Assembly: GCA_965217095.1 (NCBI GenBank)
Contig: OZ244235.1
Location: 4,488,175-4,552,174 of the forward strand
Reading direction: 5' to 3'
Length of the DNA stretch: 64,000 nucleotides
DNA from: Candidatus Latescibacterota bacterium
GTDB lineage: Bacteria > Latescibacterota > UBA2968 > UBA8231
This document shows positions 2,139 through 45,228 of this stretch, one piece after another (within the stretch, counting starts at the first letter, position 1; every line of letters starts with the position of its first letter). The notes below the pieces were generated by a model. The model did not search any database and was not told the DNA's origin. It saw only the letters and a list, made by a program, of their open reading frames with translations. A program made the position numbers and the translations under genes.

Positions 2139-2142
2139 CGGT

Positions 2143-3941: not shown

Positions 3942-4140
3942 TTGGAGGGGGAAAACCGGTGACGTTCAGGGGGCCGGGAGACGGCTGCGGCGGCGGCGGC
4001 GCGCGGCGCGGGAATGGAGGCTTTCGGGCGCGCTAGGCACCGCCTTCCGGCGCCGCGGAGACGGCGAGCGGATCCCCCCTTCCAGAGGGGAAGGGGGGTG
4101 CTGTCGAGGCGTCCCCGCGGGGGCTCTCCGACCGGGTTTG

Positions 4141-4170
4141 GACTAACGATAAGGGGTATTATCGTTAGTC
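4141..4170. repeat. Perfect 12-bp-arm palindrome GACTAACGATAA-GGGGTA-TTATCGTTAGTC, ~200 bp upstream of the minus-strand operon start. Possible operator or terminator.
   Basis: Inverted repeat read directly from the sequence. Confidence 0.4.
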
Positions 4171-8499: not shown

Positions 8500-8769
8500 T
8501 ACTTCAATGTGCGCCTGCAGAAAGATCGCCCTTGCGTGCTGGTCGTGGTCGGCGCCACCGAGGACGGCCACAAGGAGCTGTTGGCAATCCAGGACGGCGA
8601 GCGAGAAAGCCATCTCAGCTGGCTGCACCTGCTGCAGGACCTGAAGGCTCGAGGCCTGAAAGAGCACTCCTTCCTGGCCGGCGCCGACGGCGCGTCAGGT
8701 TTCTGGAAGGCTCTGGAGGAGGCGTTGCCTGGTGCCCGCGCCCAGCAGTGTTGGGTGCATAAGACGGCC

Positions 8770-12530: not shown

Positions 12531-14538
12531 CCGGCGTTGTCGTGGGCCTCTTCTCGATGCGCCGTCCGAACTCAGGAGCCGTCATCCTATCCACCCGCGA
12601 GGCCAAAACTTCGGGAAAACGATCACTGTGTGTTTCGTCAAATATGGCGTCTGCTTCGGAGGCTTTGAGAGCGATTGCCCCCCTCCGCGAAATTGGGAGA
12701 TCCCATCGCGGTGCGAGCATGGGAACGAGCTGAAGTTTCGCATCCACCCGGGGAGTGTTCCTGTCCTTCTGTCCTCCTGACACATCCACGAGGAGCGACC
12801 AGCTTATCGCGAGGTGGATGTTAGAGCGGCTGCGCTCTGAGATGCTTGCCAAATCGACGGAGAAGGCACACAGAGAGCACTCCGATGGCTTGTCTGAGAA
12901 CCGAATTGCTCTGAACAGTGTAGCTAGACGCTCCACACCCTTTAGAACCTCAGGAGATCTAGCACCAGGAACTCTGGCGTCGCGGTAAAACCACTCCGAT
13001 GCCTCACGCACCCCCTCAGTCTGTGTGGCATGGCCCATCTGTGTCGATGAGTAAGGATCCTCACCGTTGAAGATCGCCCAGCGATGTGTGTGCTTAAGAA
13101 TCGTGAGTAATGCACGCGGTAGCCCACAGGACATGTCAACGAAGGTCTTGAACCCAAGATACCTTTGGGGTAGCTGGAGTTCGCGCAGCAATTGGGCGAT
13201 TAGGTCCCTTTTGAAGTGGGCCAGGGCATGGTGATGTCGGCCCTTCGAGCCTGTGTCGTCGCGGTAGGCGTGTGCGCTAATAGCTATTTCACGGGCGGAT
13301 TCGCGCAGGTCCCTGTTGGCACTCCAATCCTTGTATAGCAAAAAAGTGCTAGTCTTCTCCAATAGGGGAGCCCCCGCTATGCGCAGTGCATCAATCACCA
13401 TGTCAGCGTCTCTAGCCTCAGTGAGACCCGGAGCTATCTGGAGCTCAATTCCTCTTAATAGCTTATCCCTCAGGGCCTCGAAGTACGGCTGCCTATCGGG
13501 CAAGCGTGTTGTACCGGTACCTTGTGCATCCCACCCACTTCCGGGCAAATAGAAGAGTCCCATGGCATCGACAGGATCTTCTTGCATTGGAGTGGGCAAA
13601 GCGACTCCAGACTTGAGAAGCCGTCTTGTGCAGAGCATTGCGGCAAACTTAGCGTAATTGGGCCTTTTTCTGACTCGATCGTCCAGCCGCATCTCCTCGA
13701 ACTCAGATCCCTCTCTGTTGACCTCTTCCGCACTCAATGTTTCGTACGTCCTGATTCCGTATCTCCGGGCACCTACTCTGAATGAACAGGGGGCCTCCCG
13801 CTCTCGGATTAGCGTGTTGACGTATCTCTGATGGTTAGCGGTTAGGTTCTCTAACTCGTCAATCAGGTATAAGAAAAGCACAGACTGGAGTCCGGGTATC
13901 TCCTCCGCCAGTATCTGCGGCACGCCATACACGAGTCGTCCAGGGCTAGAGAGGATCCTTGAGTTTATCTTGCCGGTGATAGGGGCGTTATTGACGGCCA
14001 AGTCGAGCTCCCGCTGCAGCGACTGAAATGCGGAGAGCAGCTCGGACAGGGCCTTGGGCTCCTGACCAAGCGGAGCATCGAAGCACGTGCCAATTATGCG
14101 GGAGACGATCCGCTCCTCCTGCAAATCAGTCTCAGTTTCTACTAGGGCCTCAGCTACCGCAGCAACGACGAGCTGAGAGAGCCACAGGTCGCTGTAATAA
14201 GCGAACAAGCTTGCCCATGCCTCATCTGAAAGCCCACGTCCAGAGAATCTGCTCGCATTCAAGCCCGTACACCGTAGATAGATTCCGATATATCCCTCTT
14301 TCGCGATGCCCTGTAACGCTGAGTCATGGCACCGCAGCCTCTGTAGGGGGAAAGAGAAGTATCGCATCAGGTGGGTCTTACCGCTTCCCTTGCCCCCGAG
14401 CAGCAGCATCGGCATCGGGGAGGTAGGCTTGAGGAACTCCTCGAATCCGCCTCCTGGCATGTCTACCCAGTAGTCATGGATCTGCTCGTCCGAGAAATCG
14501 ACTGCTTGAGTGACATTGAATGGATTGTCAACGCGCAT
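12499..14538 (-). CDS. P-loop NTPase (679 aa) with widely spaced Walker A and Walker B motifs, reminiscent of ABC/AAA_15-21-type or ORC-like defence ATPases.
   Basis: Walker A LLLGGKGSGKTHLMRY near aa 48. Walker B LFLYLIDELENL near aa 240. Translationally coupled to both neighbouring genes. Confidence 0.6.
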   Translation of the reverse strand: MRVDNPFNVTQAVDFSDEQIHDYWVDMPGGGFEEFLKPTSPMPMLLLGGKGSGKTHLMRYFSFPLQRLRCHDSALQGIAKEGYIGIYLRCTGLNASRFSGRGLSDEAWASLFAYYSDLWLSQLVVAAVAEALVETETDLQEERIVSRIIGTCFDAPLGQEPKALSELLSAFQSLQRELDLAVNNAPITGKINSRILSSPGRLVYGVPQILAEEIPGLQSVLFLYLIDELENLTANHQRYVNTLIREREAPCSFRVGARRYGIRTYETLSAEEVNREGSEFEEMRLDDRVRKRPNYAKFAAMLCTRRLLKSGVALPTPMQEDPVDAMGLFYLPGSGWDAQGTGTTRLPDRQPYFEALRDKLLRGIELQIAPGLTEARDADMVIDALRIAGAPLLEKTSTFLLYKDWSANRDLRESAREIAISAHAYRDDTGSKGRHHHALAHFKRDLIAQLLRELQLPQRYLGFKTFVDMSCGLPRALLTILKHTHRWAIFNGEDPYSSTQMGHATQTEGVREASEWFYRDARVPGARSPEVLKGVERLATLFRAIRFSDKPSECSLCAFSVDLASISERSRSNIHLAISWSLLVDVSGGQKDRNTPRVDAKLQLVPMLAPRWDLPISRRGAIALKASEADAIFDETHSDRFPEVLASRVDRMTAPEFGRRIEKRPTTTPGDEQKDLFDG

Positions 14539-15494
14539 CAGGGAGTGAACTCCATCTTTGGGTACCTCCGGAAGATAGGTACCCAGGGTTTATCTTCTTC
14601 ATCGTACCAGAAGATCGGAAGCGTGTTATCTGGCGTGTTGTGATGGAAGCCGAGGAGTAGCTGTCCGTTTTCAAATCCTAGGGCGTCGTCATCGGTGAAA
14701 AGGTCACTGCCGTACTTTCGACACATAGCCTCGGTTCGCTGACGGTCGACCATGGAAGAGGCTGCAGGGAAGTACCGAGACACTTGGCCAAAGCATTTGT
14801 AGGAAGAATCCAGTACATGAATAGCCCTAACCTCATCAAACAGGCTGTTGGCGATGATATTGTCACGCCCCTCCTCGGTTGCGAACAGGAGGTGGTAATC
14901 GACCGTGGCATCTGGGTTGGCGTGCTTAAGATCGGCCAATACTTCCTCGGAGTATGTGACTGCCTGTGTTCCACTTCCACAGAAGTCATCAATGAACACA
15001 TAATGCGAAACATCAGGGAATCGGACTTCTGCGACGCCCTGAGAACCGTACCGCCGGAACACCTCGTGCGTATGCACGAATAGCTCCTTTGGTAGTCGGT
15101 TCTCCTGTCGATAGTAGTAAAGGAGATGGCACCCGCTCTCCGACGGATTTCCCATTCCTAGGAATCTCGTTCTCTGCAGCTCATACTCATACTTCCCATC
15201 CAGGAAGGAGACGTCGACTGTGTTTGCGTTCTGACGTCGAGCGCTCTGCACGATCGGATACTTGTAAAGATCTCTGTGCATCGCTTGCAGTAACTCGCGC
15301 ACCTCGTGGCTACCAAAGTACATGAACTGGCTGAGCAAGAAGAGTGCGTGAAAGCGTTCACCCGGTTCGTTGGGGAGATCAGCAGAGAAATTGCTTAGCC
15401 ATTCAGTGATGCTGTTCTGAGTTGCTCTGTCTTCCCAAACGGTCTCGTTCAGAATCTTCAGCTTCCGCCTCAGGTCCTCGACATATGAGTCCAC
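14538..15494 (-). CDS. Hypothetical protein (318 aa) with a phosphoribosyltransferase-like / MTase-motif-I-like signature (YVFIDDFCGSGTQA).
   Basis: hhhhDD-x-CGSGT resembles the PRTase PRPP-binding loop. It also mirrors the DPFCGSGT motif I of the upstream MTase. Its start overlaps the NTPase gene. Confidence 0.5.
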   Translation of the reverse strand: MDSYVEDLRRKLKILNETVWEDRATQNSITEWLSNFSADLPNEPGERFHALFLLSQFMYFGSHEVRELLQAMHRDLYKYPIVQSARRQNANTVDVSFLDGKYEYELQRTRFLGMGNPSESGCHLLYYYRQENRLPKELFVHTHEVFRRYGSQGVAEVRFPDVSHYVFIDDFCGSGTQAVTYSEEVLADLKHANPDATVDYHLLFATEEGRDNIIANSLFDEVRAIHVLDSSYKCFGQVSRYFPAASSMVDRQRTEAMCRKYGSDLFTDDDALGFENGQLLLGFHHNTPDNTLPIFWYDEEDKPWVPIFRRYPKMEFTP

Positions 15495-15506
15495 GCTCTA
15501 TCGCCC

Positions 15507-16874
15507 TTACCCTTTCTGGTATACGGCTGTGAGCTCAACTGGAATCAGTGCGGCGGTGTGATTGCGCTTCGTCATGAGTTGGCGAGATCGGATCTTGTTC
15601 TCAAAAACACATGCGAGGTCAAAGCCCAGCGATTCCGCTATCTCACGGATGTACTCTGTGGCGCGGAAGCGGCGACCACAGACCAGGTTATCGCCCAGTG
15701 TCAGGACCAGATGGCCACCGGGACGCAGAACTCTCCACGCCTCCTGCAGGCTTGTTCGCATCTCGCGCAGAAAACTTCCGGCAATGTGGGCTCGCAGGGG
15801 GTACTCGGTATACACCTGAGCCAGCAGGTCATCGGCTGATACGACACCTGTTGGCAGGAAGCTCTCCAATTCTGATGTAGGGTAGTGCTCACAGCCGATA
15901 GTCTTCGACTCAAGTTTTCGCAAGCCACTGGAAGCGGCGAGGTCCAGCCATCCGAGGCTGAGGCTAGTAGACCTCACATATTTCTGAGCCCCCGCGTAGG
16001 GCGGCGAGGTGAGGATAAGGTCCACGGCTTCATCCGAGAGACGACCCGTTCCATTGGTTGAGAAAGGAGCTGGGAAGTGCAATTGTCGAGCATCCACAGA
16101 GATGTGACACGGCGGCGGGTTTGGAAGGACTCGGTAGAGTGCCGCCATTCGCTTGAGGTTGACCTCTACACACCGCCGGAACACTCCAAAGACATTGACG
16201 CGACGCAATTGGCGAATGTGACGATCAGTCCTTTCGCGCAAAGGATGCGCGGGAGGGTACTGTCCTTCGCGAAGCCTAACGGGCACCGAGAGCCGTGGAT
16301 CCGCAAGGCTGGTCTTTCGAGCGCAGGACGAAAATGCAACCTGAAAGAAGCGAATGTATGCATCACTCCGGAGCGACATGATACCCTCACGGATCCTGCA
16401 GAGCTGGCGAATCACATGCGGATGGTACCAGTAGTCGATGTTGACCACATCGGGTAGAGGCTGTGTGGCACGGTCGGGGATGTTCCGTTGCAGACAATTA
16501 AATGATCTCCTTAACGCCGAGGGAGACAGTGGCTGTGTCTTCGCGGCTGCCATTAGCCGGGCGAACGGGTTCGTGTCGGAGCCTAGAGCAGGTCTTCCGG
16601 AGAGTAAGGCTTCGAGGAGCACGGTCCCGGAACCACAGAAAGGGTCCAGCACGACACCCCCAGGCGGGCAAACCTCTGGGCACTTGAGAAAGAAGTGCGG
16701 GACATGTACGAGTAGTTTGGCCGGATAGGGGTGTAGGAGATGCGTATACCTGTCAGGCGACCGAAGACCGTCAACGGCTGACCGGAAATCAAAGGGCACA
16801 GGACTGCCCTCTGTCCTGTACTGCTCGACAGCGTTACGGAGTAGCTGATTTGTGCTGGGGCAAGGATCAGCCAT
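15507..16874 (-). CDS. DNA methyltransferase (N6A or N4C), alpha-like motif order X–I–TRD–IV. First gene of the four-gene operon.
   Basis: HPYPAKLLVHVPHFF (motif X-like). GVVLDPFCGSGTVLLEALLSG…SDTNP (motif I). VDLILTSPPYAGAQKY (motif IV, SPPY). Confidence 0.65.
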   Translation of the reverse strand: MADPCPSTNQLLRNAVEQYRTEGSPVPFDFRSAVDGLRSPDRYTHLLHPYPAKLLVHVPHFFLKCPEVCPPGGVVLDPFCGSGTVLLEALLSGRPALGSDTNPFARLMAAAKTQPLSPSALRRSFNCLQRNIPDRATQPLPDVVNIDYWYHPHVIRQLCRIREGIMSLRSDAYIRFFQVAFSSCARKTSLADPRLSVPVRLREGQYPPAHPLRERTDRHIRQLRRVNVFGVFRRCVEVNLKRMAALYRVLPNPPPCHISVDARQLHFPAPFSTNGTGRLSDEAVDLILTSPPYAGAQKYVRSTSLSLGWLDLAASSGLRKLESKTIGCEHYPTSELESFLPTGVVSADDLLAQVYTEYPLRAHIAGSFLREMRTSLQEAWRVLRPGGHLVLTLGDNLVCGRRFRATEYIREIAESLGFDLACVFENKIRSRQLMTKRNHTAALIPVELTAVYQKG

Positions 16875-21365: not shown

Positions 21366-21899
21366 TCAAGCCGCAACTTTGAAGCATCCTTCAAGGAAAG
21401 TTTCAAAAGCATTTGGATTGCGGCGACTATTGTATTTATAGCAGCATTCGGCAATATACAAAGGTGCGTATTTCTTGCAATAGCGGTGATGTGTCCCATA
21501 CCAGGCACGCTTAAACGAAGCCCAAAAGCCCTCCATAGTATTGGTGTGGATTCCCCTTTTGAAGACGCCTTGACTTCGGGTAAATACCGAGTGTCGCATA
21601 AACGGACGGACGGACCAGTATGATTTGAAGCTATCAGTTATCAAATGCGACCCCTCAGGGTTCACAGCCTCTTTGATAAACTTGACGATACCCTCTCCAG
21701 ACAAGTCCTCCGCAACACGGGCAACAACCTTTCCTCCACGTTGAACAACGCCTAAAACGGCCAATTTCGAGGTCCCTCTTCCACGTGGAGAATTTGACCT
21801 GTTCATATGAGGGTAGCGATTTAGAGGTTTCCCGCCAATGTAAGACTCGTCTGCTTCAACAATCCCGTGCAGCATGACGAAGCCTTGTTTAGAGGCCAT
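21366..21899 (-). pseudogene. IS1595-family transposase, C-terminal ~177 aa fragment. The N-terminal zinc ribbon/HTH is missing.
   Basis: GIVEADESYIGG…HLITDSFKSYW…HTNTMEGFWASFKRAWYGTHHRY…YIAECCYKYNSR aligns with the intact IS1595 transposase at 25245..26126. Confidence 0.55.
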
Positions 21900-21964
21900 T
21901 CCGGCAGTTTCTTACCACCCGTTTCGGCATCAGCCCCAAAAGTGGAAACTTTGGACCGAAATGG

Positions 21965-23107
21965 GTGGTAACTTTGCTCCGAAATACGCACGATCGATAC
22001 GATGCAGAAAAGAACTACATGGAGCACAGTCTGGGTGCCATCACGGAACTCACCGAGCAGGTCGGGAATCAACGTGAAACCTTCGAAGCCTTCACCGTCG
22101 AATTGTGGCAGCGGCTCTCGGACTTTGCTGAGATGTTGTCGAAATCAGCTACGGAACAGGTGATCAACGCGCTGAAAGAGGTTATTGCCGACTTCAACAA
22201 AAATCTCACCGAGCAGTTCGGTGAAAACTTCAAGGCGCTTGATGCCGCGGTGCAGCGCCTTGTCCAGTGGCAGGAAAACTACCGTGTGCAGCTTGAGCAA
22301 ATGGGCGAACAATACCGCCAGGGAGTCATAGCTATCACGCAGACTGAGGCCTCAGTCGCGCATATCAGCGAGGAGTCGAGACAGATACCACCGGCGATGG
22401 AGTCCCTCAGAGCAGTGTTGGAGGTCAACCAGCACCAGATTGACGAACTGGGCCAACACCTGCAAGCGTTCAAAGAAGTCAGGGACAAGGCTGTAGAGGC
22501 AGTACCTGAACTACAACGGCAGGTAGACGCGACGGTTACCAGTATCACCAATGCAACACAGCAGCTGGCCGCTGGCATGAGCGAGAGCACCGATCAGGCG
22601 AGAATCGCGATTGTCGCCGGCGCCGAGGCGTTAAATGCCAACGCTACTGCCATAAACAACAACGCCCGTGAGATGGTTCAAGTGCTAGTCGATGGCTCGA
22701 GGTCAATGACGGAGGAATCTGCCGGCATGAAGAACAATCTCCAAGAGACCGGTCGCCAAGTTCAGGCAGACGCGCAGGCGATTCAAGAAAGGGTCGCGGA
22801 CAGCATCGGGCAGATGCAAAGACGCCTTGAAAGTGCGTTGCAGGAAGTCTTCCAGGCACAGACCCGTGAAATGGACAGGATGTTTGCCGGGATCGACCAA
22901 GCTGTTACCAGGGTGGCTGAACGAACTGGAGAAAATGTCAACACTCAGCTTGGGCTTATTGACAGTACCATGACCCAGGAAGTCGAAAGAGTCATGACAG
23001 AGATGGGCCGAGCGCTCGCCGCGATCACGGAGAGATTCACCAACGACTATGCGAGACTTGTTAAGGAGATGCAGGCTGTCGTCAGGCAGGGGAATGACAG
23101 CGCATGA
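21965..23107 (+). pseudogene. Long coiled-coil protein, probably the C-terminal tail of a ZorA/MotA-like protein whose N-terminal TM domain was lost at the IS1595 fragment.
   Basis: 380 aa of heptad-rich sequence (…ALKEVIADFNKNLTEQFGENFKALDAAVQRLVQWQENYRVQLEQM…). No TM segments. Its stop overlaps the start of a MotB/ZorB-like ORF (ATGA). Confidence 0.35.
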
Positions 23108-23254: not shown

Positions 23255-24795
23255 AAAGCGGGACCCCAATTCCAGGCACGGATGTACTTTGGGTGTAACG
23301 ACATACGCCCAAACCCGGAAGGAGGTCCCAGATGGAAAATACGCAGGATCTGAGCGCGTGTGTGACGAAATTGCAGGAGAATGTCCTCCAGTGGGAAAAC
23401 CGGCTGCAATCCGAACAAGGAGGACCGGCAGCGTTTCGCCTGGCGATGAACGAGCTGCGAGCTGCTTTGGATGAGATCGGTCGGACCGGTTTCCTGCGAT
23501 TGGCGCACGCCTGTGAGGTCGCCTCCGACACGTTGGGTAACGACGGTCGGCTGTACCGCTTCAAGCAAATGGTCGACAAGGAGTGGATGAGTCTGTGGGG
23601 CAAGGTCGTAGTGCCACGTCGGCTGTATCAGGAAGACCATGGCGGACCGAGCCGGGTGCCGCTGGATGAGCGTTGCGGCATGGTGAATCGATTCATGGTG
23701 CCGGAGTTGGAGCGTGTGACGGCGTTTTTGGGCGCCCGGTTGGTCCCGGCCGAAGTCGAGGACAGCTTGGGTGAAGTGCTGCCGGAGCCGCCATCGCGTA
23801 CGGCTATCCAGCACGTATTGACCACCGTCGGACAGTGTGCCGAGGACGGGGCCGAACAGCTCGAGCTGGCCTTGCAAGGCGCGGCGCCGCTGGACGCCGA
23901 GGGCGACACGCTCGTTGTGAGCTGGGACGGCGTCACCGTCCCCCTGCGAGAGCCAGCGCCCAAGCGCGGACGTCCGGCCGAGCGACCGATGGCCACGGCC
24001 ACCGACACCGCGCCCACCGCCTGGAAGGAGGCGGGTGTGGGCATGGTCGCCACCTACCTGACGCCGCTGGATCCAGAGGTCGAAGAGCCGGAACGAGTCG
24101 ATGTGCGCTATGCCGCGCGTATGCCGGAAGCGAAGATGACGACCCTGGTCAACGGCCTGGTGGAGCAGACGGCCCGGGCGTTGCAGCAGGGTGGCTACGA
24201 CCATCGTGTCGTTTTGGCCGACGGCAAACGAGAGATCTGGCGCATCGTCGACGAGCATGGTGTGTTCGAGGGTTTCACCCGCATTCTGGACTTCTATCAC
24301 GCGGCGCAGCATCTGTCGATGGCGGCGGAGCACCTTTTCGGCAAAAAGTCGGCGAAGGCGGATCGCTGGTATCGATCCTGGCGGCACAAACTGCGCCATA
24401 CACCCAACGCCGTGGCGGGCTTGATCCGCTCCCTTTCCTACCACCGTCGCAAACTCCGAAGACGATCGGACCGTTATCGCCAGGCGACCACCGAAATGGG
24501 CTACTTTCGCAACAACCGGGACAAAATGGAATACGCTGGCTATCACGCCTCGGGCTTGATCATCTCCAGTGGCCCTGTGGAGGCCGCCGCCAAGACCATC
24601 GTCGGCCACCGACTCAAACGCAGCGGCATGCGATGGACCCGCCACGGAGGTCAGCAAATCCTCAACCTACGAGTCCAGGTGCAATCGAAACGATGGGATG
24701 CTTTCTGGAACTGGTATCTCCAGCAGACCACGCCCATAACAACCCTGAAAAGGGCAGCGTAAAAACGAGGCTACACCCTTTGATTGAAAGGGAAT
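23255..24795 (+). mobile_element. ISKra4-family insertion sequence. Boundaries approximate; short GGGTGTA(A/G)C inverted repeats.
   Basis: Contains transposase ORF 23332..24762. Weak inverted repeats at ~23268 and ~24775. Confidence 0.45.
23332..24762 (+). CDS. ISKra4-family transposase (476 aa).
   Basis: C-terminal signature YFRNNRDKMEYAGYHASGLIISSGPVEAAAKTIVGHRLKRSGMRWTRHGGQQILNLRVQVQSKRWDAFW. Confidence 0.6.
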   Translation: MENTQDLSACVTKLQENVLQWENRLQSEQGGPAAFRLAMNELRAALDEIGRTGFLRLAHACEVASDTLGNDGRLYRFKQMVDKEWMSLWGKVVVPRRLYQEDHGGPSRVPLDERCGMVNRFMVPELERVTAFLGARLVPAEVEDSLGEVLPEPPSRTAIQHVLTTVGQCAEDGAEQLELALQGAAPLDAEGDTLVVSWDGVTVPLREPAPKRGRPAERPMATATDTAPTAWKEAGVGMVATYLTPLDPEVEEPERVDVRYAARMPEAKMTTLVNGLVEQTARALQQGGYDHRVVLADGKREIWRIVDEHGVFEGFTRILDFYHAAQHLSMAAEHLFGKKSAKADRWYRSWRHKLRHTPNAVAGLIRSLSYHRRKLRRRSDRYRQATTEMGYFRNNRDKMEYAGYHASGLIISSGPVEAAAKTIVGHRLKRSGMRWTRHGGQQILNLRVQVQSKRWDAFWNWYLQQTTPITTLKRAA

Positions 24796-25244
24796 ACAGA
24801 TGAAAAACGGATATCTACCCACCTCGAATGCCGACGGCTTGCCTATCGTTCCGATGACGGCGGCGCAAAAGTACCCCTCAGATACGATCCGGAGTATTTG
24901 ACCGTCTAAACCGCACGCCGAGGTTCATCAGTGCCACGGGTCCTCGGAAGCGAGCCTTCCCGAAGTGGTTCGGTAGATGAGCAAGAAACTGAAAGCGCCC
25001 TACTACTCCTACTGGTTCGCGTGAGGCGCGGGCGGAGCCAGGTAGTCTGACCAGAGTCACTTTCCTTCCTGCAAGTTTTGAAATGGATCAATATAGAAAA
25101 GCCGCGTACCAGGTCCTTGAAGCCGCTGATCTCCCTCGCGTCGATCGCGTAATCAGGCAACGCAATTAACGCTTTAAGGCTTGACAATCACCCCCTTATT
25201 GGTTATCTTAAGGATGAGAAAAACAACCAAATAAGGGGCGGAGC

Positions 25245-26126
25245 ATGAACTTGATAACCGTAACAGAAAGATTTCCGACGCAGGAATCCTGCATCGCCCA
25301 TTTGGAGCTGGTTCGCTTCGGCGATGAGCCCTTTTGCCCCTTGTGCGGCACGGTCGGGGAGTGCGCCCGCAAGCGTGAAGGGTCGAAGATCGGGCGCTGG
25401 AACTGTCACGCCTGTAAATCCAGCTTCAACGTCTTATCCAAGACGATGTTTCAGGGAACACATCTTCCCTTGCAGAAGTGGTTCTGCGCCATCGCCCTGA
25501 TCGTGAACGCCAAGAAAAGCCTGTCCAGTTGCCAGCTTGCACGTGACTTGAACCTGAATCAGGGGTCCGCCTGGTACATGCAGCAACGCATCCGGGCCGA
25601 GATGGCTACCAAGCAGGGAAGGATCAGGTTAAGTGGAATCATCGAAGCCGACGAGACCTATGTCGGCGGACGCCCCAGGAAGCGCAATAAGCACGATGAC
25701 GACAAGCCCAACCCCAGAGGACGAGGAACACGCAAGACCGCTGTTATCGGCGCTGTGGAGCGTTCTGGGAAGGTTGTGGCCGAAGTCGCCGACGATCTCT
25801 CGGGCAAGGGCGTGCTCGCCTTTATCAAGCGCGCCATCGATCCTGACACCTCGACGCTGGTCACGGACGAATACGGGGCCTATAACGTGGTGCGGCGGAT
25901 CATGGATCACTGCGTGATTCAGCATTCCGAGCGCTATGTCGATGGCAGTATTCATACCAATACGATAGAAGGCGTCTGGTCCCTGCTCAAGCGCGCCTGG
26001 TATGGATCACATCATCACTACACGAGACAATACACGCCGCTTTACGTGGCCGAAGCGTGCTACAAGTACAATCACCGCGGCACCGACAATGGCTTCGAGG
26101 CGTTCCTGCACGGATGCTTCAAGTAG
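25245..26126 (+). CDS. IS1595-family transposase (293 aa), intact.
   Basis: Zinc ribbon CPLCG…CHACK. IEADETYVGG. LVTDEYGAYNVV. HTNTIEGVWSLLKRAWYGSHHHY. Confidence 0.75.
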   Translation: MNLITVTERFPTQESCIAHLELVRFGDEPFCPLCGTVGECARKREGSKIGRWNCHACKSSFNVLSKTMFQGTHLPLQKWFCAIALIVNAKKSLSSCQLARDLNLNQGSAWYMQQRIRAEMATKQGRIRLSGIIEADETYVGGRPRKRNKHDDDKPNPRGRGTRKTAVIGAVERSGKVVAEVADDLSGKGVLAFIKRAIDPDTSTLVTDEYGAYNVVRRIMDHCVIQHSERYVDGSIHTNTIEGVWSLLKRAWYGSHHHYTRQYTPLYVAEACYKYNHRGTDNGFEAFLHGCFK

Positions 26127-26137
26127 GAGCGCTTGTT

Positions 26138-26581
26138 CTACAGGAGGTCGTACTCCTCATCGGCGGTCACTACGACAAAATCCAAAATGTCTTTTGTTGG
26201 ACAGTAGTTCATGTCCCATCGCCTCAAAACATCACGCCCCAAAAGAGATGGGACCTCTATGAGATCGTCATTACAGTTTGCAGATATCCATAGTTCAATT
26301 TCGTACTTGTAAACCTTCGCCTTTTCAGAAAAATAGACGTGTGCCGGTTCAAGAAATGAACTGGATTTACCGCCTAAGCCTAGAGCGGACGCCTTTTTTT
26401 GGAATCCCGCAGACTGTAAGTTTATGCCTATCCTCTTACGATCTGCTGGCATTAACATGGTAGTGTCTGCGCCAGTATCTACCAAGAAAGAAATGTCGCT
26501 TACGATCCCAAGTCTTGGAATATGCAGCCGCGCCTCTACATAGGGAGCATTTGTGGTATCGCCGTAACGACCTTGTAGCAT
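26138..26581 (-). CDS. Retropepsin-like (clan AA) aspartic protease (147 aa), a passenger of the IS1595 unit.
   Basis: FLVDTGADTTMLMPADRKRIGI (DTGA catalytic motif). Confidence 0.6.
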   Translation of the reverse strand: MLQGRYGDTTNAPYVEARLHIPRLGIVSDISFLVDTGADTTMLMPADRKRIGINLQSAGFQKKASALGLGGKSSSFLEPAHVYFSEKAKVYKYEIELWISANCNDDLIEVPSLLGRDVLRRWDMNYCPTKDILDFVVVTADEEYDLL

Positions 26582-26859
26582 TACAAAATCATAGTCTTGG
26601 GTTCGGGGTCAACGTATCGAATGATAGATTGTTCGCGTGAAAACCCGTCGCAATCTAGCTTTTCGAGTACAGCCTGAAATGTTGGTTCGTGAGCCCTGAC
26701 ATGGCCTGTGCATATGGCAACCCACTCCTTGGGATACTGTTCGACCAAACGTGGATCACTAGAAGACAGACACTTTACGGACTCGCGAAAGGAGTCTAAT
26801 TCATTGGCAATTTCCCTAGGGTCGATTTGCCCCATATCTAAATCTTTAGTCATTATCAC
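26581..26859 (-). CDS. Small hypothetical protein (92 aa) translationally coupled to the aspartic protease gene. Possibly a DUF5678-like partner.
   Basis: Stop/start overlap at 26581. KEWVAICTGHVRAHEPTF motif. Confidence 0.45.
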   Translation of the reverse strand: MIMTKDLDMGQIDPREIANELDSFRESVKCLSSSDPRLVEQYPKEWVAICTGHVRAHEPTFQAVLEKLDCDGFSREQSIIRYVDPEPKTMIL

Positions 26860-27023
26860 CCCTCTTCTTATTGAGGATCTCCTGGAAAGTTTCGTATGAC
26901 ACCCCTTCCAGTTCTATCGGAATAATATAAAACATTCTGACCCTTCATCACGGATAGCGCGCAGGATGGACATTTGGGGGTCTTGCAGCGCGTGTTTTCT
27001 GCCTCAGCCTCGGGTGCCTATTT

Positions 27024-27398
27024 ATGTGTTATACTATAGGACAGGATAGGACAGGTCAAAAAGTTGCGGTCATGCGCCAGAATCAACGATGCCCATCAGA
27101 TAGTGTGATAGACCCCAACGTCGAGGCAATTGTGCGGGGATTGCAAAAAAACAACATCCACACTTTCGAGTCTTGCCAGGGCGGAGAAGGGCATTCCTTT
27201 CATGAGCCTACGGTGAGGTTTAGCGGAGGGCCAGCCGAGGGATATAGGGCCGTAGCATTGGCGATGACATATGGGTGGCCCATAACTGGCCTGAGGCGTT
27301 ATTGGACAGTACTTCGAGGAACTAATGAATTGGACGGGCCGAGATGGGAAATGACTTTCAATTCCGTTTTGCTCCCGGCCCTCCCAATTCCCGACTAG
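27024..27398 (+). CDS. Hypothetical protein (124 aa). Start uncertain.
   Basis: Coherent ORF inside the IS1595-bounded unit. Confidence 0.35.
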   Translation: MCYTIGQDRTGQKVAVMRQNQRCPSDSVIDPNVEAIVRGLQKNNIHTFESCQGGEGHSFHEPTVRFSGGPAEGYRAVALAMTYGWPITGLRRYWTVLRGTNELDGPRWEMTFNSVLLPALPIPD

Positions 27399-27404
27399 CA
27401 GGTG

Positions 27405-27565
27405 TCGTTGTCGATTAGGCGTTGGCATTCATCGCAAAGGCGTTTATTGCCGTCTCCCTCGCGGCGATTTTCCCGTTCGATATTATTCCCAGTATTGCAG
27501 TTCGTGCAAACGTGGTAAACATCTGCCAGCACTGAATGCCATGCTGAAGTTCTTGTCAAAATCAT
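27405..27565 (-). CDS. Small Cys-rich (4-Cys zinc-ribbon-like) protein, ~53 aa. Not in the ORF track (<60 aa).
   Basis: Reverse-complement translation MILTRTSAWHSVLADVYHVCTNCNTGNNIERENRREGDGNKRLCDECQRLIDNDTC. Confidence 0.25.
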
Positions 27566-27689
27566 CACCCCCTTTCTGGTACGGACCTTTTATTTGGATG
27601 TAGTATTGCTCCAGGTGCAGGTTGTATACCGCCTCTTGAATGTGGATGCAGCCGATCCCGGAATCGCACCCGGCCAGAAGTCAAGCGCA

Positions 27690-28298
27690 CTAATTCTTCG
27701 GACGGACATACGACCCACGACAGGTTTCGGCCCGGGGATCATATGTGACTGCATATTCCATAGGCTGCCACGCTCCGAAGCCGTTTTGAAATTTAACCTT
27801 ATTGCCATGATATCGTATTTTGCCGGTTTTTTTGTCCGCCCATCCGAATTGACCGAATTTGGTTTCATACCAAGAATCTGTCCATTTATGGTCGTATTGG
27901 GCATATGATTCTACGATATCACTACACCGAACGGACGCAGCAATCGAGTGTTTGTCGCCCCAGCATCGAAGGTCCTGGCGACACTTTTCCTCCCCAACTT
28001 TTTTGGTCGATGGGCCTGCCCGCAGGGATGGGCCGTCCTGCGGCCGGGTCGATGGGCCGGACGGCGGGCTGTTCGCCCGCGGATTGCCGTCGGTGGGACG
28101 TGGCGGCGGGAATCTGCTCATACCGTTGGGCAGCGGATCTTCTTCGTCGTTTCCTGCTATCATCCCAATGATGCACATTCCCATCACAAGACAAAGTCCT
28201 ACTCCTGCGATATTTAGGCAGCCTCCCACGTTGTTGTGCCCTCCTCGACTGGCATTCTCTGCCGCCGAAAGTGGCGGTCGGGTGGTGTCCCCAGACAC
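27690..28298 (-). CDS. Membrane-anchored protein with a Pro-rich linker and a C-terminal globular domain. Passenger gene.
   Basis: TM segment VGGCLNIAGVGLCLVMGMCIIGMIAG. Linker PPPRPTDGNPRANSPPSGPS. C-terminal domain WTDSWYETKFGQFGWADKKTGKIRYHGNKVKF. Confidence 0.45.
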   Translation of the reverse strand: MSGDTTRPPLSAAENASRGGHNNVGGCLNIAGVGLCLVMGMCIIGMIAGNDEEDPLPNGMSRFPPPRPTDGNPRANSPPSGPSTRPQDGPSLRAGPSTKKVGEEKCRQDLRCWGDKHSIAASVRCSDIVESYAQYDHKWTDSWYETKFGQFGWADKKTGKIRYHGNKVKFQNGFGAWQPMEYAVTYDPRAETCRGSYVRPKN

Positions 28299-29168
28299 GA
28301 CAGGGTAAAGATGGTTTGTTATGTGGGAAAGTCAAGCCTTAAAGCGTTAATTGCGAAAGTTTTTGGACAGCAAGCCCCTGAAGTCAGGGGCGAACAATCA
28401 CTATCGGCCGGCACGATGGTTCACAGAACATATCGACGACGTATGGCCAAAATTTGATATAGATACCAAGGAGCGCTTTGAAAAAGTATTTGTGAAGGTT
28501 AACTCGCTACTTTAGTACGGAATGAACCGGCAAGCGAGCTACCATTAATAGGTGTGGAAAAAGAGAAAGGGCGACCCTAACCTTCCTTTATAGAAGTCCA
28601 TCAACAACCGCCCGGTTGGCGCCGGGCATGGAAGGAGAGAGTCGCCATGAGAGAATCTACACTGGAATCCGCAGACTTGTCTATGCCGACGTGGGATACG
28701 CTGGAAGGCTGGGCTCGCTCGTCGATCCAATCGCTGTTGCAGCAGGTGCTGGAGGAGGAAGTGACGCAGCTACTGGGCCGTACGCGCTACGAGCGCCGGA
28801 CTTCAGTGGACGACAACTCGGGCTCGCGCAACGGACATGGCAAGCCTCGACGGCTGGCGTTGATGTCGGGCACCATCGAGGTGAAACGGCCTCGGGTTCG
28901 TGGACTGGAGGAGCGCTTTGAGAGCCGAATCCTGCCGCTGTTTATGCGCCGTACGAAGTCGGTGACCCAGTTGCTGCCCGAGCTCTACCTGCACGGACTG
29001 TCTCAGGGGGACTTCGAGCTGGCGCTGCGCGGCCTGCTGGGAGCGGGAGCGCCGCTGTCGCCGTCCTCTATCGCGCGTTTGCGGAATAAGTGGATCGTCG
29101 AATACCACGCCTGGCGCACGCGACGGCTGGATGACCGCGAGTTGGTGTACGCCTGGGCGGACGGGATC

Positions 29169-31107
29169 GTGCGCCACGAGGCGCCAGAGAACCGGGTGGG
29201 ATGCAAGGACCCACCAACGGGCTGTCGCAGCAGCCTCGACAACGACAGAGTGGAGTGGCACCTTCAGACACTCCACGTCTGGCAAGCAAGACGGAATGGT
29301 GTAACCCGAAGTGAACCAATGATGGAACCCCCTTTAGCGGCCCGCCAACCCAAACCTGGTGGATAAGGGTTGGTACGCAACGCACGTGGTCGGATATATG
29401 ACCCGACTGCGACTCTGGGGAGGTGTGATACCCACCGAAGCAGAGGCCTTGGAGAATGCCTGCGGCGTACCCAAGGCGAAGTTGCGGGGGAAAAGCTGGG
29501 CACCTCCCCCGTCAAACGGTTCATGGTGAACGTGGGAACCGAGCCGAGTCCGACCGTTATCGGGGCAGCGCGCTGTCCGCTGTGGGGCTTGGCAAGGGAC
29601 GGAGCCTCTGTAGTAGTCCGCGAGCGGGAAAGCCGCTTACATGGCGAAGGGAGGCAGCAAGTTGCGCAGTGGGGTACTGGAAAAACAGGAGGACGCCGGT
29701 GAATGCCAGCGCTTCGTGGCCCGAGGCAGAACAAGCCCGTAATCGAGTACTGGAAATCCAGACCAAACTGCACCGTTGGGCTGTAGAGGATCGAAGCAAG
29801 TGCTTCGACGACCTGTTCAACCTGGTGTGTGACCCGGCGTTTTTGAGTGTAGCCTGGCGTCGGGTGCGCAGCAACAAGGGTGCTCGTTCGGCCGGAGTGG
29901 ACGGACAAACGGCCTACTCTGTGGAGACGGAACGCGGCGAGGAGGCCTTTCTCGCCGAGGTGCGGGTTGATCTGAAGACCCGCAGTTTCCGGCCTCTGCC
30001 CGTACGCGAGCGGTTGATTCCGAAACCTGGCACAACGAAGAAGCGCCGGCTCGGCATCCCAACCGCTCGGGACCGAGTGGTCCAAGCAGCACTCAAGCTG
30101 GTGCTCGAACCGATCTTCGAAGCGGACTTCAAGCCGTGCTCCTACGGCTTCCGCCCGAATCGGCGGGCTCAGGACGCCATCGCCGAGATTCATCAATTCT
30201 GCTCCCGCTCTTATGAGTGGGTGGTGGAGGGCGATATCCGTGCTTGTTTCGATGAGATTGATCACGCAGCCCTCTTGGGCCGCGTGCGTCGACGTATCGG
30301 TGATAAGCATGTTCTGAGGCTTGTAAAAGCGTTCTGCAAGGCCGGTGTCCTCACGGAACAATCGGTGTTGCAAGAAAGCACTTCGGGCACTCCGCAAGGC
30401 GGTATTCTCTCACCGCTGGTGGCGGGCACCGAAGCTGCAGCGTATGACCTGCGCGACCAAACGGGGGTGACTCTCACCCCCATGGGTCTGCACCTGTCGG
30501 AGACGAAGACCGCCATCATGCACATTAGCCGTGGCTTCGATTTCCTGGGCTTTCGCATTCAGAAGCGACGGAAACCGGGCACGGTTGGCGCACGCATCTA
30601 TACGTGGCCAAGAAAGGAATCTCTGGCCCGGTTGAAGAGCACGGTGCGCGCAGTCACGAGAACGGGTCGGCAGAGGCCGTTGAAGAGCCTTCTGCGCCAA
30701 CTCAATCCGGTGTTGCGGGGGTGGGCCAACTACTTTCACAGTACGGGGTGTCGAAGGCCACTTTCAACTACGTGCGGGGCTTCACTTGGCGCCGCGTAGT
30801 GCATTGGCTGCGCCGCAAGCACCCGCGCTTTAATTGGAGGAAGCTGAAACGCCGCTACCTGCCAGGATGGTGGCCCACCGAGGACGGGATTGCTCTTTAC
30901 AACGTCGGCGAAGTAGCAGTGACTCGTTACCGCTATCGATCGGCGCGGATCCCTTCTCCCTGGCTTGCGACAACCGGATGAGACTCTGCGGTCACACGGC
31001 ACCTTGTGGAGAGCCGGATGCGTGGTAACGCGCACGTCCGGTTCGGAGGGCGGGCCGGAGAAACCCACATCACGCGTGTGGCGCAGGGCGCTCCGGTCCG
31101 ACCCTAC
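29169..31107 (+). mobile_element. Group II intron, copy 2 (1939 bp). Near-identical to copy 1 but retains the 29 nt that copy 1 lacks.
   Basis: 5' GTGCG at 29169. Identical domain V/VI. 3' …ACCCTAC at 31107. Flanked by WADGI / YVKAGLE transposase codons. Confidence 0.8.
29699..30981 (+). pseudogene. Intron-encoded RT/maturase, copy 2. The LNPVLRGWANYFHSTG domain-X motif is present, followed by a -1 frameshift in a G-run.
   Basis: ORF 29456..30799 stops after GWANYFHSTGCRRPL…. The remaining C-terminus (VSKATFNYVRGFTWRRVVHWLRRKHP…) is in ORF 30604..30981. Confidence 0.6.
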
Positions 31108-31791
31108 TATGTCAAAGCTGGACTCGAGAAGGACAAGGCGGCGTTGCTAGTTGTCCTGGGCGCCATGAGCGACGGACGCAAACAGGTGCTGGCGGTGAGA
31201 CCGGGACATCGTGAATCGACCGAGTCGTGGTTGAGCGTCTTGCGGGATCTGCGGGATCGTGGTCTGCGCGCACCGGTGTTGATGATGGCCGATGGCGCCT
31301 TGCCCATCTGGAGTGCCGTCGACCAAGTCTGGCCGGAGACGGCGCAACAGCGGTGTTGGACTCACAAGATCATGAACGTCCTCGACGACTTGCCCAAGCG
31401 TGGACAAGGAAAGCGAGGGCGCTGCTGACCCAGATCCCCGCAGCTGACACGCGCGCACAGGCCGAGGCCCGGCGCGACAAATTTGCCGCCCGCTACAAAG
31501 ACCGATATCCCAAAGCGGTCGCCACCCTCGAACGCGACTGGGAGCGCATGGTCACCTTCTATGACTTTCCCCAGCAGCACTGGAGGCATCTGCGCACGAC
31601 GAATCCCGTAGAGAGTCCCTTTGCGTCGGTACGCCTGCGGACCAACGCAGGAAAACGCTACAAGCGGGTCCAGAGCGCCACGGCATTGATCTGGCGCCTG
31701 CGGATGGTCGCCGAGAAACACTTTCGAAAACTTAATGCCTTCGAGTTGCTACCCGTCGTCTACGCCGGACAGAAGCACCAAGACGGAAAGC

Positions 31792-32493
31792 CTATACAGG
31801 AAGAGAAGATGTCAAACAAGCGAAGGATGAAGAGGGCCGCCTGATCTCATTTACACACCTATTGACGCAACCTCCGGCAAGCTGTACAGTGACGGTAATT
31901 ACCTGACAGTCGCCCCTGCTGGGCGCTATGTCATGCAGCCTTTTTCCCCGATGTATTCGGTGCTTCTCAGGCCGAGATTCCAATCCTTTCTTGAAGGCTG
32001 CCAGTGGTGTCGTTCCGTTCATATTCCTGCCCTGATGCGGGCGTTTCTCGTTGTATTTGACCAGGAAAGCATCCAGATCTTTTTGGATGTCGTCAACGGT
32101 CTCATGCCACGTCTTTCGACCGACGACGCGGAAATGCTCATCCAGGATGGTTCGGTGCAGGCGCTCGACGAAGCCGTTGGTCTGGGGTGATTTGATCTTT
32201 GTTTTACGGTGGTCGATATCCTTGAGCTGCAGAAAGAGCTCGTAGGGGTGCTGATCGTGACGACCACAGAATTCGCGGCCGTTGTCGGTGATCACGGGAT
32301 GCACTTGGGCCTGGTACTTTTCGAAGAAGGACAGGACATCGTTGTTGAGCACGTGGATGGCGGTCACCGGCAGCTTGGTGGTGTAGAGCTTGGTCCCGGC
32401 TACGGTTTCTGGAAAGCGTTGGTCCCACTCATCGAGCAGGGCTTTACTCTGACCATTCAGATGACGAGGGGTTATTAGCACACACAAAAGCAA
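31792..32493 (-). pseudogene. IS481-family (rve integrase-core) transposase, C-terminal fragment. Its 3' end runs into the IS256 copy-B right end.
   Basis: VITDNGREFCGRHDQHPYELFL…KIKSPQTNGFVERLHRTILDEHF. Confidence 0.5.
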
Positions 32494-40481: not shown

Positions 40482-40574
<93 letters not shown>

Positions 40575-40604
40575 CTAAGGTGTAACGCAAGCCGGGCAAT
40601 CAAT

Positions 40605-40692
40605 TGGCGGAGGGTGAGGGACTCGAACCCTCAAGGGCGTGAGCCCGGCGGTTTTCAAGACCGCTGCCTTACCAATTAGGTCTAACCCTCCA
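40605..40692 (-). tRNA. tRNA-Ser (anticodon UGA), class II. CCA encoded.
   Basis: Reverse complement GGAGGGTTAGACCTAATTGGTAAGGCAGCGGTCTTGAAAACCGCCGGGCTCACGCCCTTGAGGGTTCGAGTCCCTCACCCTCCGCCA. Confidence 0.75.
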
Positions 40693-40736
40693 CAAAGACT
40701 CAGCTTTACAAAATATATAAGGGCTGATTTTAAGCG

Positions 40737-43238
40737 TCAACCCGGTGGCGGCTCGACCTCTTCCTGGCCATTCGGGCTCGCAATCTCGTCGTCGGCATCA
40801 TCGTCCGCATCGTCGTTCTGAACCACGCGCGTTATGTCGATTACGCGATCGCCCGAGTCCAGATTAATGACGCGAACTCCTTGGGTGTTGCGCCCGATCG
40901 CCGATATGCCGGTAACCGGCAGGCGAATAACGATGCCGTTGGCGCTGACGATCATCACCTCGTCTTCCTCCTGCACCTCGAGACAGGCCACCACCCCACC
41001 GTTGCGATCGGTGGTCTTTATATCAATGACTCCCTTGCCGCCACGGTGGATCGCCGGGTATTCGGCGGTATCGGTGCGTTTGCCGTAGCCGTTTTCGCAG
41101 ACGGTAAGTAGCGCCGCATCTTTCTCGACCACAACCATATCCACCACCGCATCACGCGCGGCGAGAGAGATTCCCTTAACACCCGTTGAGGCGCGGCCTA
41201 CGGGCCGGACCTCCCCTTCGTTAAAGCGGACGCACATGCCGGTCTGGGTCGCCAGCAGAATATGCTGCGAGCCATCGGTGACCGACGCTCCAATCAGCGC
41301 GTCGTTTTCCTGGATGCGCAGGGCGCGGATTCCGTCTCGGCGAATATTCTTGTAAGCCGACAGGACCGTCTTCTTGACGATGCCGCCCCGCGTCGCCGTA
41401 AACAGAAAGCGATCGTCGGCAAACTCTTGCACCGGTACGACAGCGGCGATCTTCTCCTCGGATTCGAGCATCAACAGGTTTACGACACTGCGTCCCCTGG
41501 AGGCGCGCTCGCCCTCGGGAATACGGTATACTTTCAACCAATGGCAACGCCCGTTGGTGGTGAGGAACATGAGATAGGCGTGGGTCGAGGCAACGAACAG
41601 GTGCTCGACGAAGTCTTCTTCCTTAGGTTTCATGCCGGTGACACCCCGGCCCCCGCGGTTTTGGGTACGGTAGGCTTTGGGCGACATCCGCTTGATGTAC
41701 CCCGAACGCGAAATGGTCACTACCATTTCCTCTTCCTGGATAAGGTCTTCCAGGTCGAACTCTTCAGCGGAATAGACGATCTCGGTGCGTCGGTCGTCGC
41801 CGAAACGCTCCTTGATTTCGCGAATCTCATTCTTGATGATGTGCATCTGCTCGTCGCGGCTCGACAACACCGAGCGCAGCCGTTCGACGAACTTGAGCAG
41901 GCCGCTGTATTCGGTGTCGATCTTGTCCTGTTCGAGGTTGGTCAGACGTTGCAACGGCATGCTCAGAATCGCCTGGCTTTGAATCTCGCTCAGTTCGAAC
42001 CGCTGCATCAGGGCCTGTTTGGCCTCCTCTGGGTTACGCGAGGCGCGAATCAACCAAATGACTTCGTCGATTTCCCGCAAAGCGATGCGCAAGCCCGCTA
42101 GTACGTGCGCGCGCGCTTCGGCTTTCCCTAGCTCGAAACGGGTGCGCCGCAGTACGACCTGATGGCGATGGTCCACGTAGTGGTGGAGCATCGCCTTGAG
42201 GTTCAACACCTTCGGCTTGGCGTTGATGATCGCCAGCATGTTTACGCCGAAGGTGGTCTGCAGCATGCTGTGGGAGAACAGCTGATTCAACACCACCTCG
42301 GCGTGGGCATCGCGCTTGAGTTCGAAGACGATGCGCAGACCGGCGCGCCCCGACTCGTCGCGGATGTTGGAGATCCCTTCGACGGTCTTGTCGCGTACCA
42401 GATCGGCGATCTTCTCCAACAGGTTCGATTTATCGACCAGAAACGGGATTTCGGTTACGATCAGGTTTTCGCGCCCGTTCTTGAGGGTTTCGACCTCGGT
42501 CCGAGCGCGGAGGTAGATCATGCCGCGTCCACTCAGATAGGCCTGCTGGACGCCGGTTATTCCGTGGATAACGCCGCCGGTGGGGAAGTCGGGGGCTTTG
42601 ATATGTTCCATCAAGCCGCCGATGGTGATGTCGGGTTCGTCGATCAACGCGATTAGCGCATCCGCAACCTCGGAGACGTTGTGGGGCGGGATCTTGGTCG
42701 CCATGCCGACGGCAATGCCAACTGAGCCATTGCACAGCAGGTTGGGGAACTTGGCCGGCAACACGATCGGTTCGTTTCGAGTCTCGTCGTAGTTGCCTTG
42801 AAAATCTACCGTGTCCTTTTCCAGGTCCTCCAGAAGCTGCATCGCCGGCCAGCTTAAACGCGACTCGGTGTAGCGCATGGCGGCGGGCGGGTATCCGTCG
42901 ATGGACCCGAAGTTTCCTTGGCCGTCCACCAGGGGGTAACGCAAGCGGAAATCCTGCGCCATGTGCACTAGGGTCGGGTACACGATCATTTCGCCGTGCG
43001 GGTGATAATTCCCGGAGGTGTCGCCGGCGATCTTGGCACACTTGCGGAATCCACGGTTGGGGGCCAGGCTTAAATCGTTCATGGCAACCAGAATACGTCG
43101 CTGGGACGGCTTGAGCCCGTCCCGCACGTCCGGAAGCGCGCGCGCCATGATCACGCTCATGGAATAGTCAAGAAACGAGGTCTTTAGCTCGTCTTCGATC
43201 TTGACCGCTACGATCCGGGTTTCCGGTTGTTCCAGCAT
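40737..43238 (-). CDS. gyrA: DNA gyrase subunit A (833 aa) with an acidic C-terminal tail.
   Basis: [50 protein letters not shown]…. C-terminal [12 protein letters not shown]. Confidence 0.95.
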
Positions 43239-43278
43239 CGTTGTCTATCTCTTAGGTTCTAGTGGAGTTCTTCATGGG

Positions 43279-45228
<1,950 letters not shown>

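Follow-up and report, generated by a model that had tools for sequence, protein, structure and literature searches.

The DNA analysed here (the window) is a 64,000-nt stretch of contig OZ244235.1 from Candidatus Latescibacterota bacterium assembly GCA_965217095.1, and its subject is a 3,195-bp insertion sequence (IS) at positions 25161-28355. The element carries a transposase gene at its left end; the stretch from the end of that gene to the right terminal inverted repeat (IRR) holds five passenger open reading frames (ORFs) from the ORF list, two of which encode a retropepsin-like aspartic protease and a small upstream partner of the DUF5678 family. By its transposase and ends the element belongs to the IS1595 family and fits the category of transporter insertion sequences (tISs). 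An earlier note on the window, worked from the sequence alone (the sequence-only reading), had pointed to this element. Coordinates of the features are collected in Table 1.

The terminal sequence CGCAATTAACGCTTTAAGGCTTGAC has exactly two occurrences in the 64-kb window, which are inverted relative to each other and have 3,145 nt between them; in dinucleotide-preserving shuffles the chance expectation for such a 25-mer repeat, allowing up to 3 mismatches, was 0.00. The perfect 25-bp inverted repeats claimed by the sequence-only reading are an exact pair and the element that they enclose is real, although its ends had been placed a few bases off, at 25166-28347. No second, transposase-proximal right end was found about 1 kb from the left inverted repeat (IRL), the best internal matches to the repeat (14-15 of 25 positions) being at the level of shuffled sequence, and no inner repeat remnants, a sign of stepwise capture, exceeded chance at the junctions between cargo modules. 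The inner end of the IRL forms a -35-like TTGACA (25181-25186) with a -10-like TATCTT 17 nt downstream, a promoter-like match, and a hairpin that probably regulates the transposase sits between the repeat and the start codon; the same hairpin inverted repeat occurs in three related elements (L001, L002 and L006). At the right end the repeat-borne TTGAC also faces a cargo gene, that for the 202-aa protein. The ends (CGCAATT/CGGAAT) resemble the CGGnnTT ends of the ISNha5 type, which is a lead only.

The transposase gene is intact, as had been claimed, and its full-length product scored well above the family cutoffs (NF033547, 179.2 bits against a cutoff of 75; PF12762, 131.8 bits; PF12760 zinc ribbon, 27.7 bits). 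The N-terminal zinc ribbon is formed by CPLC at residue 31 and CHAC at residue 54, and the catalytic blocks are EADETY (134), VTDEYG (206) and HTNTIEGVWSLLKR (237). The closest relatives, also of 293 aa and 87-90% identical over their full length, came from uncultured Candidatus Latescibacterota, and remoter ones from metagenome-assembled genomes of Poribacteria, Entotheonella, Binatia, Chloroflexota and Alphaproteobacteria. Further members of the same transposase cluster (sister copies) are present on the 6.7-Mb source contig.

Table 1. Features of the element and its surroundings (window coordinates).
Feature	Position	Strand	Description
Group II intron, two copies	6575-8501, 29154-31109		~1.93 kb, 99.4% identical; reverse transcriptase/maturase ORFs 6877-8373 and 29456-30799
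ORC-CDC6-like, PRTase-CE and N6/N4 methyltransferase-like operon	12499-16874	-	PF24389, 417 bits; PF24390, 214 bits; conflict-system type gene set
IS1595 transposase fragment	21366-21899	-	55% identical to the tIS transposase; abuts the ZorA2 fragment
ZorA2 gene (type II Zorya), N-terminally truncated	21965-23107		NF041792, 248 bits, model positions 168-538 of 550
ISKra4-like transposase	23332-24762		Left of the tIS, after the ZorA2 fragment
IRL	25161-25185	+	CGCAATTAACGCTTTAAGGCTTGAC; 25/25 with IRR; identical IRL in L005
Hairpin in transposase 5' leader	25191-25238	+	CCCCTTATTGGTT...AACCAAATAAGGGG; 14-bp stem
IS1595-family DDE transposase, intact	25245-26126	+	293 aa; NF033547, PF12762, PF12760
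Partner-protease block (module 1), transferable	26134-26868	-	86-89% DNA identity to L164
Retropepsin-like aspartic protease	26138-26581	-	147 aa; DTGA 35-38, flap-like GLGG 68-71, LLGRD 113-117
DUF5678 partner	26581-26859	-	92 aa (90 aa from ATG at 26853); PF18929
ORF, function uncharacterised (module 2)	27024-27398	+	124 aa; conserved SCQGGEGH motif
4-Cys (CxxC...CxxC) mini-protein (module 2)	27395-27568	-	57 aa; convergent with the 124-aa ORF, 4-nt 3' overlap
Membrane-anchored protein (module 3)	27690-28298	-	202 aa; transmembrane segment, Pro-rich linker, Cys-containing C-terminal domain; reads inward from IRR
IRR	28331-28355	-	Exact reverse complement of IRL

In a survey of 86 loci holding relatives of the transposase, 57 elements could be delimited. 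Cargo was carried by 52 of them (1.5-4.4 kb) and five were bare (1,030-1,309 bp), so that the layout IRL, transposase, cargo, IRR is the norm for the clade. Perfect 8-bp target-site duplications flanked 30 of the 57. As their 8-bp duplications and their several copies per genome show, elements with transposases 87-90% identical to that of the window are mobile as complete units, and the cargo they carry is unrelated. One relative (L005) has a right repeat 2.6 kb from its IRL, for a length of 2,614 bp, and an 8-bp duplication, TTAATTTA. Two copies of a 2,332-bp element (L001 and L002) lie in one 1.5-Mb contig; L002 is flanked by the 8-bp duplication TTCATTTG, and on either side of L001 there is a direct repeat of 9 bp, TTTATCCAT. 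Another assembly of that genome has the two inverted copies (L003 and L004) with each other's flanks: recombination has inverted the ~75 kb between them and so swapped their target duplications, which is direct evidence of one way in which such duplications are lost.

Cargo turns over at the same place in these relatives. Against relatives with transposase DNA 86-91% identical to that of the window, similarity stops at the transposase stop codon and returns only in the last 25-38 bp. The clearest case is a pair of elements, L169 (5917-7974) and L170 (5917-8391), whose backbones are 99.9% identical and whose interiors (990 and 1,407 bp) share nothing. Their shared left part reaches 64 bp beyond the transposase stop codon and takes in the opening MTREEKDA (8 codons) of the cargo ORF that comes first, and their shared right part consists of 13 bp and the repeat (the last 38 bp). 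This pattern suggests a cassette-like exchange at fixed junctions. The commonest cargo of the clade is an N6/N4 DNA methyltransferase of ~545 aa (a cluster of 21), and a methyltransferase-HNH fusion, an HSDR_N protein and an EcoRI-type methylase were also found; in L001-L004 a SocA_Panacea antitoxin gene precedes one for a small membrane protein. Two elements with an 89% identical transposase (L008 and L009) hold a small upstream ORF that overlaps a different retropepsin-like DTGA gene. In both copies a 22-bp sequence, AACCATGAACGCTTATAACGTT, is present twice in tandem (L008 6150-6200) and frameshifts this gene, which scored 35.7 bits on PF13975 once the duplication was removed; the frameshift may reflect inactivation of a harmful gene. 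The small upstream ORF (85 aa in L008) was considered as a DUF5678 member and rejected, having 19% identity and neither the conserved W nor the C-terminal IL; a later match to the hidden Markov model was circular, the ORF having been in the alignment, and it was treated as a different partner.

Judged by where its homologues occur, the cargo of the window element is not one unit but a mosaic, made up of at least three modules that are found independently of one another. Its GC content is heterogeneous and differs between modules (~45-61%, against 55-60% for the transposase). The first module, the partner and protease genes, matches L164 at 2020-2483 and 3862-4137 with 86-89% DNA identity. There it is split by an IS256-family element and lies inside perfect 25-bp repeats (170-194 and 4200-4224) of a different sequence, together with an IS1595 transposase 31% identical to that of the window; module identity of 88% against transposase identity of 31% shows a recent transfer of the module between unrelated tISs. 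Type I-E-like CRISPR-Cas genes (Cas_CT1975, Cas5d, Cas1 and Cas2; L164 4270-7760) directly adjoin the L164 element.

Homologues of the second module (49% identical for the 124-aa ORF and 62% for the 4-Cys mini-protein), in the same convergent layout, are the sole cargo of the 1.8-kb elements L018 and L019, the latter flanked by the 8-bp duplication TTATCTTT. By comparison with its homologue, the first of these ORFs probably starts at M17 (27072), giving 108 aa; it had no match in Pfam, NCBIfam, PADLOC, PHROG or PDB, and the mini-protein had no family match in Pfam, NCBIfam, PADLOC or PHROG. The third module, the 202-aa protein, matched the function-unannotated family phrog_13160 (E 1.8e-14) and had no Pfam or PDB match; its C-terminal domain (about residues 100-195, ~95 aa) occurs in 1,399 representative proteins. 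In L168 a homologue with 94% DNA identity is not part of a tIS: it follows directly on an IS1-like transposase ORF and is truncated by a 240-bp derivative resembling a miniature inverted-repeat transposable element (MITE; L168 2763-3002), which has the window's repeats (18/25 and 24/25) and no transposase. The sequence-only reading had listed the 124-aa ORF and the protein with a transmembrane segment and Pro-rich linker, both of which are present, and had given the 4-Cys ORF 53 aa, which is four fewer than its length. It had also held that passengers found independently of the IS would speak against the element; such passengers do occur, and their status as cargo is not overturned thereby.

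The 147-aa protein with the DTGA motif, rightly singled out in the sequence-only reading as an aspartic protease, is by motif, profile and structural model a genuine retropepsin-fold protein and a predicted protease. Its family comprises at least 105 proteins, and in an alignment of 38 members FLVDTGAD, G-x-G-G and PSLLGRD were invariant; their counterparts in retropepsins are the catalytic motif, the flap and the GRD/N motif. The family profile matched ApRick, a Rickettsia protease, at E 1.2e-7, and also the proteases of feline immunodeficiency virus (FIV) and equine infectious anaemia virus (EIAV). The AlphaFold model had a predicted local distance difference test score (pLDDT) of 94.4, and its top Foldseek matches were 5c9f and 5c9d, followed by the FIV, EIAV and human immunodeficiency virus (HIV) proteases (E 4e-6 to 1e-4); the template modelling score against 5c9f/5c9d was 0.60-0.62 when normalised to the query and 0.68-0.72 when normalised to the target. 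These structures (5c9b, 5c9d and 5c9f) are of APRc (ApRick) from Rickettsia conorii, and the window protease resembles APRc and the three viral proteases in its single-lobe clan AA fold, DTG motif, Gly-rich flap and GRD/N signature. It is only ~20% identical to them and, unlike them, has neither a membrane anchor nor a polyprotein context and belongs to a family paired with an upstream DUF5678 gene.

The partner scored 27.5 bits on PF18929 (cutoff 23.2). Its gene ends ATG ATT TTG TAA, the stop codon running into the protease start codon as TAATG. Homologues of the protease were examined at 44 metagenome loci, and in about 40 of these an ORF of ~95 aa lay immediately upstream in the same orientation, a companionship that, with the TAATG overlap, upholds the translationally coupled 92-aa partner of the sequence-only reading. 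The upstream ORFs share the motif SS..PRLI..YP.QWVA..G.V.A and a hydrophobic C-terminus, [ML][IV]L (KTMIL in the window), and 23 of 27 aligned partners matched DUF5678. By these features the partner and protease genes are a conserved two-gene operon, and the pair also stands alone amid unrelated housekeeping genes in long contigs.

Among ~28 loci with enough flanking sequence, the pair adjoins IS1595-family transposase genes or remnants in about seven independent cases: the window, L164, L165-167, L100/L101, L097, L115 and L118. In L100/L101 it is carried with a Panacea module as co-cargo of a 3,509-bp tIS with 36-nt repeats. In L097, L115 and L118 partner and protease lie downstream of the transposase on its strand, at a distance within 90-200 bp, and clear inverted repeats were not found around these units in L097 and L115. 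In L165-167 the pair lies by a relic IS1595 element just after gyrA; in L165 (region 1-8833) the relic has a pair 60-69% identical to the window's and sits directly after dnaN-recF-gyrB-gyrA. In the same scan, none of ~37 loci with more distant retropepsin-like genes had an IS1595 match. The pair-linked transposases are 25-36% identical to one another (49% in one pair), and the proteases 33-67%. The sequence-only reading had called this cargo unusual; the protease pair in fact recurs by several IS1595 subgroups and alone in chromosomes.

The surroundings of the element are a pile of mobile DNA, with the ISKra4-like transposase gene on the left, an IS256-family element ~180 bp to the right and the IS1595 fragment at 21366-21899. 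Both group II intron copies were matched by Rfam RF00029 (8401-8499 and 31009-31107), and the second splits the IS256-family transposase gene (28647-29153 and 31110-31844). The region of the truncated ZorA2 gene (21366-23107) gives the impression of a defence system that IS insertions have destroyed and, together with the ORC-CDC6/PRTase-CE operon, suggests that the tIS lies in an island of defence and mobile-element genes. The genes gyrB and gyrA and two tRNAs lie at 40486-45228, and because they are only ~12 kb from the tIS this part of the window is placed near the replication origin; the two sites, in the window and in L165, may be a shared variable region.

The best explanation of the locus, which we hold with good confidence, is that 25161-28355 is an IS1595-family tIS with its transposase on the left and a cargo slot extending from the transposase stop codon to the IRR. 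The transposase would bind both repeats and mobilise the 3.2-kb unit, as a rule with duplication of 8 bp of target, and at the window copy the duplication may have been lost in the recombination-prone pile of mobile elements, which would be an explanation of its absence and not proof. The partner-protease operon would be a selfish module of a toxin-antitoxin (TA)-like or defence-like kind that aids persistence of the element; its effector would be the protease, as a homodimer, held in check by the upstream partner, whose conserved hydrophobic C-terminal tail might, speculatively, block it. Cargo would pass between elements through recombination, or else be captured when it lies between one IS end and another copy of the repeat.

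Several observations weigh against this explanation. The sequence-only reading had proposed a search of the flanks for a target-site duplication and of the genome or metagenome for further copies of the 3.2-kb unit. At the window copy the left flank (...TCAGGCAA) and the right flank (AAAGTTTT...) differ, and shifting the boundaries at the repeat ends revealed no duplication either; almost half of the delimited relatives likewise have none. The collections searched, which did not include the source genome, yielded no further copy of the unit, so that whole-unit movement is shown for close relatives but not for this unit itself. As a single sequence the protease lies just over the PF13650 cutoff (24.5 against 24.3 bits) and below those of PF13975 (25.5 against 28.2), PF00077 (19.9 against 20.7) and TIGR02281/TIGR03698 (18-21 against ~58); because it sits near or below the curated cutoffs, the retropepsin assignment rests on family-level evidence. 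From the transposase side the protease family is rare cargo, being found in none of the loci of the 80 closest transposase relatives. The partner had no helix-turn-helix, ribbon-helix-helix or AbrB match and no DNA-binding domain was detected in it, its profile found no credible match among PDB sequences, and its structure model (pLDDT 41.9, from a 4-sequence alignment) was unusable. The pair matched no TA or defence family in Pfam, NCBIfam or PADLOC apart from PADLOC PDC-M08B at 16 bits, and PHROGs gave nothing usable.

A TA or defence role of the pair is nevertheless plausible, because of its overlapping two-gene layout, its solo insertions and its carriage on several mobile elements, and because of the Panacea co-cargo, the frameshifted protease gene of L008/L009 and the company of methyltransferase and restriction-type cargo. 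The toxin/immunity-like pair of the sequence-only reading has only gene architecture and co-cargo with known TA modules behind it. In its strongest form the proposal is that DUF5678 and the retropepsin-fold protease are a previously undescribed TA or abortive-infection family, whose protease effector would be kept inactive by the partner, perhaps through its [ML][IV]L tail, and which would be a preferred hitch-hiker of IS1595 tISs with cassette exchange at a fixed slot; we put this forward tentatively and consider it rather doubtful as a whole. Literature searches on DUF5678, and on retropepsins with toxin-antitoxin, returned nothing relevant, and no aspartic-protease toxin was found.

The pair might instead benefit the host, as an anti-phage or conflict system of the abortive-infection type or as a protease with its regulator or substrate, the IS serving only to spread it. 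The window is consistent with this in being rich in defence genes (the ZorA2 fragment, the ORC-CDC6-like/PRTase-CE operon and methyltransferases), as is the mostly methyltransferase and restriction-type cargo of related elements. Phages encode small retropepsin-fold proteins, and small retropepsin-domain proteins are reported to adjoin type III CRISPR systems in Sulfolobales (PMC3973734), the sole related report found. The PADLOC match to PDC-M08B points the same way, but is far too weak at 16 bits to count; moreover, the module has no sensor or other effector gene, and solo pairs lie amid housekeeping genes rather than in defence islands. The data do not distinguish a host-defence role from a TA role, and in practice there is overlap between them; a host-beneficial pair is possible, if somewhat unlikely.

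As to the unit itself, it could be an accidental composite in which the IRR is a solo end or MITE-type remnant, local genes were trapped beside an ordinary 1-kb IS and the 3.2 kb never moved. The missing duplication, the heterogeneous GC content of the cargo, the neighbouring ISKra4-like, IS256-family, group II intron and IS1595 sequences, the lack of a second copy and the existence in L168 of a MITE-like derivative with the window's ends would all fit such an accident. We nevertheless regard it as quite unlikely, since the ends are perfect and the transposase intact, other IS1595 elements carry two of the three modules, and close relatives hold cargo in the same slot with duplications around the whole unit. 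The last point, together with the lack of an inner right end near the transposase stop codon, bears out the sequence-only reading in taking the right repeat as the true end of the element. In any case tISs probably originate when genes are captured between an IS and a second end, and the accidental composite therefore differs from the tIS explanation mainly on whether the unit has moved since. That the pair is an accessory of IS1595 transposition, with the protease processing the transposase or a host factor in the fashion of retroviral proteases, is most improbable: the recurrent linkage to transposases of subgroups only 25-36% identical, and the start of the pair 90-200 bp past the transposase stop codon on the same strand in four loci, would fit, but most pair loci have no transposase nearby, the 80 closest transposase relatives lack the protease family, orientation varies (convergent in the window, divergent in L164 and co-directional elsewhere) and there are bare 1,030-bp relatives that have target duplications.

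Compared with known systems, the tIS at 25161-28355 is like other IS1595 tISs in having one zinc-ribbon DDE transposase, short terminal repeats, passengers inside the ends and, in its relatives, an 8-bp duplication; it differs in that the window copy lacks this family hallmark and in that its cargo is three small uncharacterised modules including the retropepsin-like protease operon. To our knowledge, tISs are the smallest vehicles known for moving genes that are not involved in transposition. PMC3129680, PMC11891212 and a TnCentral preprint, which cite Siguier, Gagnevin and Chandler 2009, describe the tIS concept and the IS1595-family groups ISNha5, ISNwi1+ and ISPna2+, state that tISs are restricted to the IS1595 and IS66 families, and name regulators, methyltransferases and resistance genes as cargo. 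The closest cargo analogy is with the TA pairs of Tn3-family transposons (PMC7157771), which are likewise small two-gene modules inside a transposon, proposed to stabilise or benefit the element. Those pairs belong to known TA families and to a transposon family with another mechanism, whereas SocA_Panacea is the only recognisable TA cargo among the relatives of the window element and the protease pair is unclassified. The pair resembles type II TA operons, including PanAT (Panacea-domain antitoxins), in its small upstream gene overlapping an effector-sized gene, patchy distribution, solo insertions and mobile carriage, and it is co-cargo with a Panacea module in L100; it differs from type II TA operons in having no known toxin or antitoxin domain and a partner with no detectable DNA-binding domain.

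The content and swapping of tIS cargo are little documented, and this locus and its relatives inform both. In an IS1595 clade of uncultured bacteria (Latescibacterota, Poribacteria, Entotheonella and others) cargo is the rule, and it is replaced wholesale between near-identical backbones; most of it is methyltransferase, restriction-type and TA-like genes. Two things merit follow-up, the recurrent module of DUF5678 partner and retropepsin and the way in which cargo is exchanged like a cassette at a fixed slot. The DUF5678-retropepsin operon, widespread and uncharacterised, is a candidate for a new selfish or defence module, and if it is one, a protease of the retropepsin fold acting as a toxin or defence effector would be new.

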